Positions 29,530 to 33,920 of a DNA stretch of 37,693 nucleotides are shown piece after piece; within the stretch, counting starts at the first letter, position 1, and each line of letters begins with the position of its first letter. The stretch spans positions 1-37,693 of the IMG/VR virus record IMGVR_UViG_3300014208_000083; one strand, given 5' to 3'. The DNA is from a virus (lineage: Duplodnaviria; Caudoviricetes). The notes under the pieces were generated by a model. It was not told the origin of the DNA and searched no databases. It worked only from the letters and a program-made list of their open reading frames with translations. The translations under genes and the position numbers were made by a program.

Positions 29530-31067
29530 TCGTACAATGTACGGGTACCGGCAAGACAATTTTATTCGCCTCAATATCAAGTGATCTCGTCCAGATGGGC
29601 GAACGTGTCCTGATACTTGCACACCGTTCAGAGCTGCTTGACCAGGCAACCGACAAGATTTTAAAGTCAACCGGATTAGTATGCGCGAAGGAGAAAGGTG
29701 AAGACACAGCCGTTGATTCATGGTTCAGGATAACGGTTGGCAGCGTACAGACCCTTATGAGGGACAACCGCAGGGAAGTTTATCCGGCTGATTTCTTCGA
29801 CACGATCATAATAGACGAAGCGCATCATTGCCTATCAGATTCGTACAGGAAGATACTTGCATACTTTAAGGATGCAAAGGTTTTGGGAGTTACTGCAACC
29901 CCTGACCGTGGCGACATGCGGAACCTTGGAGAAATCTTTGAATCGCTGGCGTACGAATACCCCCTGCCCAGGGCAATCAAGGAAGGATACCTATGCAAAT
30001 TGAAGGCGTTGACAATACCACTGTCAATAGACCTGTCTGGCGTAAGCCAGCAGGCCGGAGACTTCAAACTTTCGGAAGTAGACGACGCACTTATGCCGTA
30101 CCTCGAAGCTATTGCCACGGAAATGGAGGCTCATTGCAAGGACCGGAAGACGCTTGTATTCCTTCCTTTAATAGCGACTTCCAAGAAAATGGCTGAAGTT
30201 CTGGCGAAACACGGATTCGACGTAAGAGAAGTGAACTGCGAAAGTGAAGATAGGGAACAGATCCGCCAATGGTTCGTGAATTCCGGCAAAGGGTCCGTAG
30301 TCTGTAATTCTATGCTCTGGACAGAAGGGTTTGACGAACCTTCCATAGACTGCGTAGTAATTCTCAGGCCTACCAAGATTAGAAGTCTTTACGTCCAATG
30401 TGTAGGCCGTGGCACCCGCATCCATCCCGGCAAGGACAACCTCTTGATACTGGATTTTCTATGGATGACCAACAAACACAGCCTTTGCCATCCGGCACAC
30501 CTGATATGCGACAACGCCGAACTTGCCGACAAGGTTACGGAGATACTGGCGAGGGAGGCGAACGCTTCAGGACAGGATCTCGAACTGGCTTGCGAAGCCG
30601 GAAGTGCGGAAGTGATCGAGGAACGTGAACGGACACTTGCGGAAAAACTTGCCGAACAGAAGCACCGGAAACGCGCCCTTGTCGATCCTTTGCAGTTCGA
30701 AATGAGCATTCAGGCCGAAGATCTTGCCGACTACCAGCCAGTGTTCGCACACGAAATGGCTCCGCCTTCAGACAAACAGAAAGCCGTACTTGAGAAGGCG
30801 GGGATATTCCCGGAAGAAATACAGAACGCTGGATTGGCGGGAAAATTAATCGAACGGATACAGAATCGCCGGGACAACGGGTTGACGACACCGAAGCAGA
30901 TCCGGTTCCTGGAACGGGTAGGCTTCAAGCACGTAGGCGGTTGGGAGTTCAGCGAGGCGAAAGGGTTGATCGACCGGATAGCTGCGAACAACTGGAAGGT
31001 TCCGAACGTCATAGATCCGGCGAAGTACGAGCCGATAAAGAGAAAGGTTGCCAATGAATCACCTTGA
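29442..31067 (+). CDS. Superfamily 2 DEAH-box helicase
   Basis: LRKYQ Q-motif, TGTGKT, IIIDEAHH, TATP, TEGFD, QCVGRGTR; probable start 29442. Confidence 0.92.
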   Translation: MHRFALRKYQQEAKTAVKTEWASGRKKTLVVQCTGTGKTILFASISSDLVQMGERVLILAHRSELLDQATDKILKSTGLVCAKEKGEDTAVDSWFRITVGSVQTLMRDNRREVYPADFFDTIIIDEAHHCLSDSYRKILAYFKDAKVLGVTATPDRGDMRNLGEIFESLAYEYPLPRAIKEGYLCKLKALTIPLSIDLSGVSQQAGDFKLSEVDDALMPYLEAIATEMEAHCKDRKTLVFLPLIATSKKMAEVLAKHGFDVREVNCESEDREQIRQWFVNSGKGSVVCNSMLWTEGFDEPSIDCVVILRPTKIRSLYVQCVGRGTRIHPGKDNLLILDFLWMTNKHSLCHPAHLICDNAELADKVTEILAREANASGQDLELACEAGSAEVIEERERTLAEKLAEQKHRKRALVDPLQFEMSIQAEDLADYQPVFAHEMAPPSDKQKAVLEKAGIFPEEIQNAGLAGKLIERIQNRRDNGLTTPKQIRFLERVGFKHVGGWEFSEAKGLIDRIAANNWKVPNVIDPAKYEPIKRKVANESP

Positions 31068-31743
31068 TCTCTTCTCTGGAATCGGCGGTTTTGCTTTGGC
31101 TGCTCGATGGGCGAATGTCAACACCATAGCGTTCTGCGAAATCAATCCGTTCTGTCAGGAAGTTTTAAAAAAGAATTTTGGAAAGGACGCGGTGATTTAT
31201 AGGGATATACGAGAATTAACACTTGACAGTTATGTCAATCTATGCTATAATAAAGAAAATAACATGGAGGATGATATGGCAGCTCATAGAAAGAATTTTG
31301 ACGAAGCGTTGCAACTTTATAACAAGGGATTGTCCATTGAAACGGTTGCAGAATTTTATAATATGTCTAGGCAGTCAATGTGGCAAATTCTCAAAAGGCG
31401 AGGATGTACGTTTAGGGATAATAAAAAGTACGGGAAAGAAAATCATTTTTATCGCGGAACTTCTGCAAGTGATAAATCTCAAAATCTACTTGAAGAGGCC
31501 ATCGAGAAGGAAATAATAATCCGCAAAGTGAAATGCGAAAAATGTGCAGATACTCCTGTTTTTAAAGATGGAAGAACAGGAATACAGGCTCACCATTGCG
31601 ACTACAATAAACCATTGGAGGTAATTTGGCTATGTCAAAAATGTCATCACGAATGGCACAAAAGCAACAAAGCGATTGCACGATTGGAGGTGATGCCAAA
31701 GGAAGTTCCCCAGATCGATATTTTGACGGGGGGCTTCCCATGA
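31054..31743 (+). CDS. C5 cytosine methyltransferase N-terminal part (motifs I-III and GGFP) with in-frame HTH-HNH insertion
   Basis: LDLFSGIGGF, FCEIN, DIREL, then the insert, then IDILTGGFP-stop. Confidence 0.85.
   Translation: MNHLDLFSGIGGFALAARWANVNTIAFCEINPFCQEVLKKNFGKDAVIYRDIRELTLDSYVNLCYNKENNMEDDMAAHRKNFDEALQLYNKGLSIETVAEFYNMSRQSMWQILKRRGCTFRDNKKYGKENHFYRGTSASDKSQNLLEEAIEKEIIIRKVKCEKCADTPVFKDGRTGIQAHHCDYNKPLEVIWLCQKCHHEWHKSNKAIARLEVMPKEVPQIDILTGGFP
31223..31251 (+). promoter_or_regulatory. Perfect sigma70 promoter with palindromic operator, inside a CDS
   Basis: TTGACA-N17-TATAAT with extended -10 TG; TTGACA-GTTA-TGTCAA inverted repeat over the -35. Confidence 0.85.
31223..31700 (+). 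mobile_element. Putative HNH homing-endonuclease cassette inside the methyltransferase gene (boundaries approximate)
   Basis: AT-rich segment with its own promoter, GGAGG RBS and ATG 31276; HTH (LSIETVAEFYNMSRQSMWQILKRRG) and CEKC...AHHCDYNKPLEVIWLCQKCHHEWH. Confidence 0.7.
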
Positions 31744-32591
31744 ATCATGCCAGCCGTTCTCCTGTGCCGGAAAGCGAAGAGGAAAGGACGATGACCGTTT
31801 CCTCTGGCCTGAAATGCTTAGAGTTATATCGGAATTCAAGCCCCGTTGGATCATTGGCGAAAATGTTGGTGGCCTCGTCAATATGGCACAGCCGGACGGT
31901 AAACCTGACTTGGAAAGTGAAACCGATACTGATGCGGAAACAGGTGACGAATTATCAGCAGATGGAATTCTTTTCGGAATCATCGACAGTCTCGAAAACC
32001 TTGGATATTCCGTCCAATCATTTGTTATTCCAGCTTGTGCCGTCGAAGCGCCGCACAGACGGGATAGAATCTGGATTGTTGCGAACTCCGGATGCCAACA
32101 TGGAACGGGGGCCACGGACGGAAGAGAACTTAAAAGACAGATACCTAGTCAGGAAGATGCCGTTATGCCTGAACGATCAGCTTGCAATGATGGACAAGGG
32201 GATGATACCGACACCGAACGCCAGAGATTACAAGTCGGGAAAAAGACACACGAAGCACGACTATCAGGTGTTGAGCGAGTCAATAGCCATGCTTCCGACA
32301 CCATCGGCAAGCCTGCTGACGTTCGAGGACATGGGACAAGCGAAATATTCTGGGAACGGGGGAAAACGCCCCGAATACAAGGACGCAAAGTTAATTCCGA
32401 CCCCGAAAAGCCGGGATTGGAAAGGGGAATCGCAGAGGGGAACGGATGCACCGGGGGATGCGCTCCAGAATACACTTGGGACACGCCCTGGCTTGAAGTT
32501 GCAACCGAACTTTGTCGCGTGGATGATGGGCTACCCGTTGAACTGGGCAAATTTAAACTGTCCAAAAGTAAGCACAGGGAAGAGCAATTGA
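31740..32591 (+). CDS. Alternative-frame methyltransferase partner polypeptide (TRD-like repeats plus motif IX-like segment)
   Basis: ATG overlaps the TGA of the upstream ORF; four TP repeats (RTPDAN, PTPNARDYK, PTPSAS, PTPKSRDWKG) and LQPNFVAWMMGYPLNW. Confidence 0.7.
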   Translation: MNHASRSPVPESEEERTMTVSSGLKCLELYRNSSPVGSLAKMLVASSIWHSRTVNLTWKVKPILMRKQVTNYQQMEFFSESSTVSKTLDIPSNHLLFQLVPSKRRTDGIESGLLRTPDANMERGPRTEENLKDRYLVRKMPLCLNDQLAMMDKGMIPTPNARDYKSGKRHTKHDYQVLSESIAMLPTPSASLLTFEDMGQAKYSGNGGKRPEYKDAKLIPTPKSRDWKGESQRGTDAPGDALQNTLGTRPGLKLQPNFVAWMMGYPLNWANLNCPKVSTGKSN

Positions 32592-32665
32592 AGGGTTATG
32601 GCAACGCCATAGTGCCTATAATCCCATACATCATAATGAAGGCAATACAGGAGATTGAACAATGA
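31748..32665 (+). CDS. C5 cytosine methyltransferase catalytic part (from the catalytic Cys through motif X), with no start codon of its own before the Cys
   Basis: CQPFSCAGKRRGKDDDRFLWPEM, ENV (VI), PHRRDRIWIV (VIII), YGNAIVP (X); first ATG is at 31814, downstream of the Cys. Confidence 0.75.
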   Translation, partial: CQPFSCAGKRRGKDDDRFLWPEMLRVISEFKPRWIIGENVGGLVNMAQPDGKPDLESETDTDAETGDELSADGILFGIIDSLENLGYSVQSFVIPACAVEAPHRRDRIWIVANSGCQHGTGATDGRELKRQIPSQEDAVMPERSACNDGQGDDTDTERQRLQVGKKTHEARLSGVERVNSHASDTIGKPADVRGHGTSEIFWERGKTPRIQGRKVNSDPEKPGLERGIAEGNGCTGGCAPEYTWDTPWLEVATELCRVDDGLPVELGKFKLSKSKHREEQLKGYGNAIVPIIPYIIMKAIQEIEQ

Positions 32666-33093
32666 CCGGCAAATGGAAGACGATGACATCAAGCAAGAGC
32701 GTGGAATGGACTACGCCGAAAGACATATTCACCAAGCTGAACACGGAATTCGGGTTCACCCTTGACCCATGTTGCACCAAGGAATCAGCCTTGTGCCATA
32801 AGTTCTACACCAAGGAGACGGACGGGCTGAAACATACATGGGCGAATGAAAGAGTTTTCATGAACCCTCCATACAGCCGTAAGATTATAGAATGGATTAT
32901 GAAAGCGTATTACGAATCTAAGAAAGGCGCACTTGTCGTATGTCTCATTCCAGCAAGGACGGATACAAGGTACTGGCACGAGTACTGCATGAAAGGTGAA
33001 ATACGCTTTCTTCGTGGCCGGTTGAAGTTCGGTGGATGCAAGAACCCCGCACCGTTCGCAAGCGCGGTAGTAATATTCAGGGGGATCAAATGA
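32662..33093 (+). CDS. Phage DNA N6-adenine methyltransferase (T1/HP1 Dam-like)
   Basis: WTTP, FTLDPC, VFMNPPYS, LIPARTDTRYWH. Confidence 0.9.
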   Translation: MTGKWKTMTSSKSVEWTTPKDIFTKLNTEFGFTLDPCCTKESALCHKFYTKETDGLKHTWANERVFMNPPYSRKIIEWIMKAYYESKKGALVVCLIPARTDTRYWHEYCMKGEIRFLRGRLKFGGCKNPAPFASAVVIFRGIK

Positions 33094-33920
33094 TGAAACA
33101 GGAATATACGCAGTATAGTTTTTTTATAAATAATAACATAAAAACAAGAAGAGAATTGGGACATATTGTGACATGGGAAATGATAGTTGAAAAAGCAAAA
33201 ATAAATATAAAAAACAATCCCGTCGGAAATGAAAAATTTAATCAGATTAACTCAATCATAATAGCTGAAAATGTTTTTAAAAAAGCCAAGTGTTCACAAT
33301 ACTTTATAAACGATTTAAAATTATTCAAATTTATTACGAATTCAGTAAAAAGTTATCAAACGTCATTGGTTGATATCTTGCCGACAGGTGGAATTTTAAA
33401 TTTTCCAGTTGAATGGAATCTCCCTTCATTTATTTTTGTAAAAGGACTTTCAGCAGATAAAAGAACAAATTTAATTTTTGTGAATCTCAGCAATAAAAAT
33501 ACTCTATTAAGTAGTGCTTCTTTTATAGTAGATGATTCAAGTGATTTGATTAATGATCCTGTTTTTATGGATAAACTAGCCAAAGGCGAGACAATCCATT
33601 TAGCGTGTAAATTTATATTTGGATTATCTTTATATTTAAAATGTTTCCCCTGTGCAGTGCGTGACGGTCTTCCTGACAATTGCTTGCATCCAAATCATTA
33701 CAAGTTTTCTGAAATTAACACAGTATCCATTGCGCCTGAAATACTTGATTCATCCGATAGGACAGTTACACCTCATATTCGTAGTGGACACTTCAAACTT
33801 CTTGGAAGCGATTTCTACAAGAAGATGAAAGGGCAAGTGATATTTATTTCAGAATGTTTTGTAAAAGGCACGGCTAAAACCGTAGAAGATATTAACGAAA
33901 GAAAACTGATAAATGAATAA
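33090..33920 (+). CDS. AT-rich hypothetical protein with HxRxGH motif
   Basis: ATGA overlap start; C-terminal PHIRSGHF...IFISECFVKG. Confidence 0.7.
   Translation: MMKQEYTQYSFFINNNIKTRRELGHIVTWEMIVEKAKINIKNNPVGNEKFNQINSIIIAENVFKKAKCSQYFINDLKLFKFITNSVKSYQTSLVDILPTGGILNFPVEWNLPSFIFVKGLSADKRTNLIFVNLSNKNTLLSSASFIVDDSSDLINDPVFMDKLAKGETIHLACKFIFGLSLYLKCFPCAVRDGLPDNCLHPNHYKFSEINTVSIAPEILDSSDRTVTPHIRSGHFKLLGSDFYKKMKGQVIFISECFVKGTAKTVEDINERKLINE

Follow-up and report, generated by a model that had tools for sequence, protein, structure and literature searches.

The locus described here raises the question of how the catalytic half of a phage C5 methyltransferase can be translated when seven nucleotides, beginning with a stop codon, separate the codon of the catalytic-motif proline from that of the catalytic cysteine. 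The window, i.e., the whole stretch of DNA that was analysed (37,693 nt), corresponds to a 37.7-kb virus record. Its minus strand bears terminase, major head, and connector-type genes, and its plus strand bears a replication block that includes genes for a helicase, the C5 methylase, a methylase of the Dam family, and a primase. A search for tRNA genes across the window returned none. Between the Dam-family methylase and the primase, an AT-rich ORF of 294 aa (33036–33920) was present without a Pfam or PHROG match. The upstream part of the methylase gene is a plus-strand ORF (31054–31743) that consists of the N-terminal part of a C5 methyltransferase fused in frame to an HNH insert and ends with IDILTGGFP-stop. 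Its residues 1–57 matched Pfam PF00145 (E = 7.5e-11), and it carries what we take to be motifs I–III. The downstream alpha C-terminal frame (31748–32665, plus strand) runs for 305 aa from the catalytic Cys and contains CQPFS, ENV, HRRDR, and GNAIVP (PF00145, E = 9.6e-20; PHROG 363, E = 1.2e-38). The two halves covered positions 1–55 and 71–323 of the 324-position PF00145 profile. When the 101 residues that follow the gap were used to search the PDB, no matches were obtained.

The junction reads GGC (31732) TTC CCA (31738–31740) TGAATCA (31741–31747) TGC CAG CCG TTC, with the Cys codon at 31748–31750. The upstream frame terminates as GGFP-stop, which confirmed the claim of the initial annotation that the interruption lies exactly between the catalytic Pro and Cys codons. 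Its further claim that the Cys frame has no start before 31814 was likewise borne out: this is the +1 frame, with a stop at 31724–31726 and a first listed start at 31814, and none at or before the Cys codon. Based on the sequence comparisons described below, the 7-base gap is probably a programmed ribosomal stop-hop, in which the plus-strand CCA would be the take-off codon and the gap would comprise the stop TGA, a one-base spacer (A), and the predicted landing triplet TCA (31745–31747). The insert proved to be real rather than an assembly artefact, since run X2, which belongs to a different study and year, contains a 204-nt contig that spans 31616–31819 with 0 differences and 0 gaps (depth 2.5). 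The insert was also found in an X1 contig (depth 14), and X1 may be the source of the record; the confirmation rests on contigs, not on raw reads. The eight bases at 31740–31747, ATGAATCA, are identical to the first 8 nt of the gene (31054–31061). Duplication of the gene start was rejected as the origin of the insert, as this 8-mer occurs four times in the window vs. 2.0 expected, a count reached by 19 of 100 shuffles.

The initial annotation had asked whether the arrangement GFP-stop-short spacer-CQ recurs with variable spacers in related methylases, and it does, with 52 distinct insert strings. A viral scan (pattern TTC-CCN-TRA-gap-TGY-CAR-CCN-TTY) returned 103 loci; methylases accounted for at least 32, and the remainder were mostly chance matches. 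A metagenome scan for gaps of 7–15 nt returned 34 loci, namely 32 gapped methylases, one gap-less locus (L386), and a probable copy of the window (L366) that was left out. Twelve of 13 loci from a genome scan were gapped methylases; the genome-scan records were labelled Clostridia, Oscillospiraceae, Muribaculaceae, Desulfobacterales, Sphingomonadaceae, two candidate-phylum bins, and the isolate Muriventricola aceti H5_61, and such bins may contain misplaced phage contigs. One example (L398) came from a cultured gut isolate. These three scans demanded a stop, and they as well as a scan for 1–30-nt inserts demanded TTC. The latter was blind to stops, covered 23 of 64 database parts, and overlaps the viral scan; its 120 loci comprised 98 gap-less loci, three others, and 19 true inserts, all 19 of which were stop-first (11 distinct inserts). 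Pooled with the loci of a scan one codon later and of a search by HNH (both described below) and with those of a scan dominated by gap-less alleles, these amounted to 121 gapped loci, the window and between-scan repeats included. They were reduced to 78 distinct junctions in two-subunit phage C5 methyltransferases, built as Gly-Phe-Pro / stop / 3–12 nt / Cys-Gln. The gap measured 6 nt in 42 of these, 7 nt in 14, 8 nt in two, 9 nt in 15, 10 nt in two, 12 nt in two, and 15 nt in one. The 74 gapped alleles with enough sequence formed 40 clusters at 80% nucleotide identity. For comparison, a gap-less set of 117 distinct junctions was assembled, and the scan dominated by gap-less alleles was used as control.

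Additional scans addressed the limits of the arrangement. When any 6 nt were allowed between GF and PCQPF, irrespective of stops, 24 of 48 matches were methylases, all with TTC; 23 of these read P-stop-P and one H-stop-P. A scan for 6-nt gaps after TTT-Pro-stop found no methylases among 16 matches, and the 78 junctions exclude the loci of both of these scans. Moving the scan one codon later (Cys/Gln) gave a methylase insert in one of 14 matches, and no matches were obtained for the GxPCQGFS methylase class when scanned for the same gap (6-nt gaps only). One methylase, L352, reads GFPC-TGA-QPFS (TGT TGA CAA), with a lone stop between Cys and Gln and intact flanks; this could be a 3-nt hop, readthrough, or an error. 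At 80% coverage, INPHARED contained no cultured phage with this cassette, and 208 partial matches were obtained.

The 78 gaps followed a small set of sequence rules. Seventy-five started with a stop (TGA 30, TAA 29, TAG 16), and the remaining three had CAA or CGA before the stop. The gap kept the reading frame in 60 alleles and shifted it in 18 (16 by +1, two by +2), and ten in-frame gaps contained two or more in-frame stops. The codon at the predicted take-off site was CCG in 41 alleles, CCA in 20, CCT in 17, and CCC in none; CCC encoded this Pro in 38 of 117 gap-less alleles and in 7 of 19 alleles of a separate gap-less sample. The last gap triplet, which was left free by every scan behind the 78 junctions, was Y-Y-N in 75 of 78 junctions, 49 of 52 distinct inserts, and 37 of 40 clusters, the three exceptions being ACG, ACA, and GCG. 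It was CCN in 37 of 78, placing CCN at both ends of those gaps, and TCA in 9 of 76; the window combines this TCA with the take-off codon CCA, an imperfect landing. C and T were used 59 and 16 times at the first landing position and 52 and 26 times at the second. All four bases were in use at the third position and at nearby fourfold sites, so the pyrimidines at positions 1–2 do not reflect neutral decay of a duplicated codon. We infer that Y-Y-N is what the two G's of the tRNA-Pro anticodon pair with, as G:C or G:U.

Only one of 82 bases in the spacer middles was C, and the last triplet was the best or tied-best pairing partner in 78 of 78 gaps by a simple ad hoc pairing score. The third bases of take-off and landing triplets covaried (p 0.009, 59 distinct pairs), with nominal p values here and below being overstated since the alleles are related. 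GGC or GGG plus TTC preceded Pro in 69 of 75 gapped alleles, and TTT was found in 10 of 19 gap-less ones; the GGC/GGG-TTC preference may be a signal or a trace of cassette ancestry. Folding of the window gave a z score of +1.3 with no conserved stem-loop, and local hairpin folding was no better than in recombined controls (141/300). Hop efficiency may be low given that no conserved stem-loop was found, which counts against a hop, as do the imperfect TCA landing in the window, the alleles that depart from the rules, and the 30 of 78 gapped alleles in which no HNH was detected. Three further candidate signals were rejected: a take-off stem formed by TTCCC and GGRAA further downstream, which was only slightly stronger than in controls (−9.25 vs. 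−8.1 kcal/mol in the median, −7.5 in the window; nominal p 0.013), pairing of the third bases of the Gly and Pro codons (44 of 78, p 0.11), and a Shine–Dalgarno (SD) boost from the Gly-Gly codons, where SD-like runs were no longer than in controls.

Selection was compared on both gene halves. Over 95 codons after the gap, a region that overlaps the beta frame, dN/dS was 0.265 in 23 disjoint gapped pairs vs. 0.253 in 30 gap-less pairs, and all 23 gapped pairs were below 0.5; the downstream half is therefore under purifying selection as in gap-less genes, a test that the initial annotation had set. The corresponding values for the N-terminal 52 codons were 0.078 and 0.090. Third positions of the alpha frame varied most (427/266/654, vs. 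366/211/634 in controls), and of 73 gapped alleles, all retained ENV and 72 the motif VIII pattern.

The alpha frame is overlapped in the +1 frame by a partner (beta-like) ORF of 266 aa (31791–32591, plus strand), with AGGA at 31780–31783 and a family-typical ATG. It contains PTP repeats and the motif-IX-like LQPNFVAWMMGYP, and matched the PHROG 1008 DNA methyltransferase (E = 1.7e-23). Of the 78 gapped alleles, 33 have a start at the index of ATG 31791, as do 52 of the 117 gap-less ones. Motif IX in the overlapping frame together with motif X in the alpha frame, both names being assignments that we presume for this two-chain layout, was present in the window, and a strict pattern, applied to alleles with 1 kb of sequence, recovered this layout in 24 of 55 with a gap and in 27 of 69 without. 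The layout resembles that of M.EcoHK31I, in which, according to the accessible part of PMC2836561, alpha holds motifs I–VIII as well as X, and beta, with motif IX, lies in another frame inside alpha; the same part describes no gap or HNH there, and the methylase studied here, located in a phage, is likened to it by layout. Three alleles (L057, L069, L059) were frame-swapped, with the C-terminal motifs in the other chain relative to the window. After the ENV motif, at about 31880–31965, the window carries an acidic insertion, QPDGKPDLESETDTDAETGDELSAD, that is open in both the alpha and beta frames; a similar one occurs in L415. The partner frame is open already from ATG 31740. As the initial annotation had observed, the insert creates this ATG and the palindrome CATGA-A-TCATG; both are present in the window, but the ATG occurs in only 2 of 78 alleles and the palindrome is not a family feature, so that neither has a supported role.

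The HNH insert contains a plus-strand ORF for an HTH-HNH endonuclease (31266–31743, counted from its GGAGG at 31266–31270), which has its own ATG at 31276, encodes 155 aa, and uses the TGA of the gap as its stop. It matched PHROG 2340 endonuclease (E = 1.5e-17) and PHROG 8446 HNH (E = 8.1e-13), and the family-conserved residues are present. A sigma-70 promoter-like site (TTGACA-17-TATAAT with extended TG, 12/12 match; 31223–31251, plus strand) lies within the insert, on the upstream side of the HNH start; looser sites numbered four vs. 2.0 expected. A second SD and start after the HNH region (31686–31695) were not accepted; of 41 HNH alleles, 14 have them in frame, and the spacing is 2 nt in most cases. 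An intron or intein was also rejected on inspection, as the insert has no room for a ribozyme core and no intein end residues.

The gap and the nuclease were linked. When the 900 nt upstream were examined in all frames, HNH was detected in 48 of the 78 gapped alleles and in 0 of the 117 without a gap; where 700 nt of upstream sequence was present, the counts were 45 of 69 and 0 of 75, respectively. No HNH was detected in the sequence at hand of the other 30 of 78 gapped alleles, indicating that the gap persists independently of HNH. In six gapped alleles (L031, L074, L029, L044, L038, L043), the HNH match within 900 nt upstream was not in the methylase frame. The converse search by HNH returned 27 loci, 22 with HNH in frame in the methylase, and all 22 were gapped (17 stop-first, five with CAA or CGA before the stop); HNH-carrying alleles are thus almost all gapped, as the initial annotation had anticipated in tying the gap to the nuclease. 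Among the others, L415 was gapped with HNH in another frame, L413 had a stop after GFP at the contig end, L417 had HNH in another frame and was gap-less with a changed motif (GTPCQ), and L429 carried a different nuclease. L416, identical to L481, had a free-standing HNH upstream and read GGG TTC CAT TAA CCA TGT (GFH-stop-PCQ), unlike the Pro take-off. In L413, L415, and L417, the HNH is overprinted in another frame and the methylase frame passes through as a long linker.

Comparison of relatives also located an edge of the cassette. In 16 gapped/gap-less pairs that were 80–96% alike downstream, identity rose from 0.63 over the last 30 nt ahead of the junction to 0.83 beyond it, whereas like-with-like pairs gave 0.87/0.90 (24 gap-less pairs) and 0.90/0.90. 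The alleles L079 and L298, one gapped and one gap-less, were 95% alike downstream. The drop was limited to these 30 nt, which places the cassette edge at the junction, and the ten codons for QIDILTGGFP (31711–31740, plus strand) are likely a cassette-borne, recoded replacement sequence. On a tree of 184 rows and 98 columns (FastTree only), gapped and gap-less alleles intermixed, with 31 state changes vs. 57 when shuffled; the starred branches force at least eight gapped/gap-less changes, in which gain is indistinguishable from loss. Because genome G001, which holds L398, contains one gapped HNH allele and two gap-less methylase motifs, the nuclease and its predicted target would be found in one cell. 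When the G001 family was scanned, 7 of 401 genomes matched, and the G001 match alone was a methylase.

Recurrence, downstream selection, and HNH linkage lend support to the reading of this locus as a miniature HNH-plus-bypass cassette, proposed in the initial annotation. In the proposed mechanism, a ribosome with Phe-Pro-tRNA on CCA would pause in front of TGA, and poor termination at Phe-Pro-stop would give time for take-off. It would then move on by 7 bases, pair anew on TCA, and continue translation from Cys. Landing of the peptidyl-tRNA-Pro on Y-Y-N by G:C or G:U pairing would yield GGFP-CQPF at any gap length, and CCC would be avoided as take-off codon since it would slip +1 instead. The accessible part of PMC3082878 reports 15% +1 frameshifting at pheL UUC_CCC_UGA, a reduction of the shift by two-thirds with CCU, and hindrance of termination by Phe before Pro, which would provide a reason both for stalling and for the avoidance of CCC; further background on proline codons is given in the available part of PMC12856214. 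Ribosomes that terminate would release the HNH protein, and those that hop would make the alpha chain, here with HNH as an inserted domain, which would pair with the overlapping beta chain. The gap and the ten recoded codons may protect the allele from HNH. In mixed infections, the nuclease would cleave gap-less alleles and thereby introduce a copy of the cassette; HNH would later often be lost while the gap stays. This homing and immunity role is somewhat less secure than the hop itself, and we consider it reasonably likely.

Several other explanations were weighed against a stop-hop. Allele-specific recoding, with readthrough of in-frame gaps, +1 frameshifting at 7- and 10-nt gaps, and toleration of the extra residues, would give GGFP-ES-CQ in the window, where Cys lies in the +1 frame and this frame is open from 31727. 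The 60 of 78 gaps that are in frame fit this reading, and Pro-stop sites are shift-prone according to the accessible part of PMC3082878. Readthrough or frameshifting nevertheless fails as a general route, because 18 of the 78 gaps shift the frame (two of them by +2), ten in-frame gaps contain at least two stops, each of the three stop codons is in use, and slippery CCC occurs in none of the 16 +1 alleles. Moreover, stop-blind scans found no stop-free sense inserts at the junction, and the Y-Y-N triplet, which encodes P, L, or S, would be left without explanation, making this route unlikely. That termination is followed by re-initiation just before Cys, with the separate chains assembling, is highly improbable: most landing triplets (CCN, TCN, CTA, CTT; TCA in the window) are not starts and the cut would lie within the catalytic loop, even though CTG or TTG, possible starts, make up 13 of 76 landing triplets and these methylases are already two-chain. 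An assembly error or a recent one-off indel, e.g., a copy of the gene's first eight bases, could draw on the identity of bases 31740–31747 with those at 31054, yet it is hardly credible for an insert that is carried by a contig of another study and obeys the family rules, with an 8-mer at chance level.

The methylase could also be dead, the HNH cassette having knocked out its host gene and the gap consisting of no more than the HNH stop codon and filler. In favour of this, the HNH ORF does terminate at that stop and comes with a promoter-like site and a start of its own, and the two gap-less methylase motifs of G001 could cover the function. Against this, dN/dS on both sides is as in gap-less genes, alpha third positions are the most variable, all 73 gapped alleles retain ENV, and the gap persists with HNH in another frame, upstream, or undetected; the landing rule would be without cause, and we find a dead gene very unlikely. 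Equally improbable in our judgement is removal of the gap from the RNA, by a micro-intron or a trans-acting process, or from some of the DNA by slippage between Pro-like triplets. Exact excision would restore the motif at every gap length, CCN stands at both gap ends in 37 of 78, and gap-less alleles are nested among gapped ones on the tree, but no conserved structure was found, C/T interchange at the landing site fits G:U pairing and not DNA repeats, and no gap-less form was present among the X1 or X2 contigs (contigs drop rare variants). We know of no 6-nt self-splicing introns.

Programmed bypassing has been documented in few systems: T4 gene 60 and its kin, Magnusiomyces mitochondria, and Hau3. 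The stop-hop proposed here shares with T4 gene 60/MobA (Manning and Atkins, in the part available) an HNH in a phage gene and the series of take-off codon, stop, and landing codon. The available part of bioRxiv 10.1101/2022.08.31.505936 describes for the MobA element an HNH, a recoded replacement segment (HomR), a gap whose end is the landing codon, and subsequent loss of the nuclease; the two have in common cassette-borne replacement of host codons, an element that ends at the landing codon, frequent loss of the nuclease while the gap stays, and a rare sense codon before or instead of the stop. The accessible part of PMC7026636 reports that the gene 60 gap blocks MobA. Unlike T4 gene 60, the host is a PF00145 C5 methylase and not the topoisomerase II large subunit, landing tolerates C/T at positions 1–2, and no conserved take-off stem-loop or internal mini-SD was found; as far as the available sources describe gene 60, its gap is about 50 nt vs. 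6–15 nt here, and its take-off is Gly/Asp vs. Pro. Unlike with MobA, the HNH is usually fused in frame and the gene is not split, the likeness being one of architecture. By analogy, the methylase cassette would work like MobA/gene 60 but is not a member, given its other host gene, much shorter gap, and lack of a stem-loop.

The nearest short-gap case is the 10-nt bypass in the terminase of Streptomyces phage Hau3 (PMC10732093), with which the methylase gaps share, as far as the accessible part goes, short out-of-frame blocks, a phage gene, and flanks that are contiguous in relatives. In that part, the Hau3 bypass is triggered by the rare codon UUA, proposed to be regulatory, associated with SD and structure, and described with no nuclease link, and a junction peptide was shown in E. 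coli for a UAA variant. The likely hop over a stop would be a kind of decoding shown so far mainly in synthetic constructs. The 2016 review PMC5009743, in the part available, knew of no natural in-frame stop hopping; the stop-hops of Weiss et al. that it cites are constructs, whereas the methylase gaps are natural, under selection, and in some cases out of frame. In the literature searched, with most subscription papers and supplements outside reach, no report of bypassing in a DNA methylase was found.

Taken as a whole, the comparisons make it fairly probable that these methylases represent a natural family of minimal stop-hops, in which Phe-Pro, a stop, and a Y-Y landing would suffice without RNA structure to bridge gaps of 6–15 nt in any frame. 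Spread by HNH across phages of several bacterial phyla, the gap would shield the gene and set the ratio of nuclease to methylase. The 52 natural gap variants at one catalytic site constitute a ready series for the requirements of ribosome take-off and landing. If the reading is true, annotation pipelines label such live genes as pseudogenes, and the nuclease-plus-bypass strategy arose again, in a minimal form.
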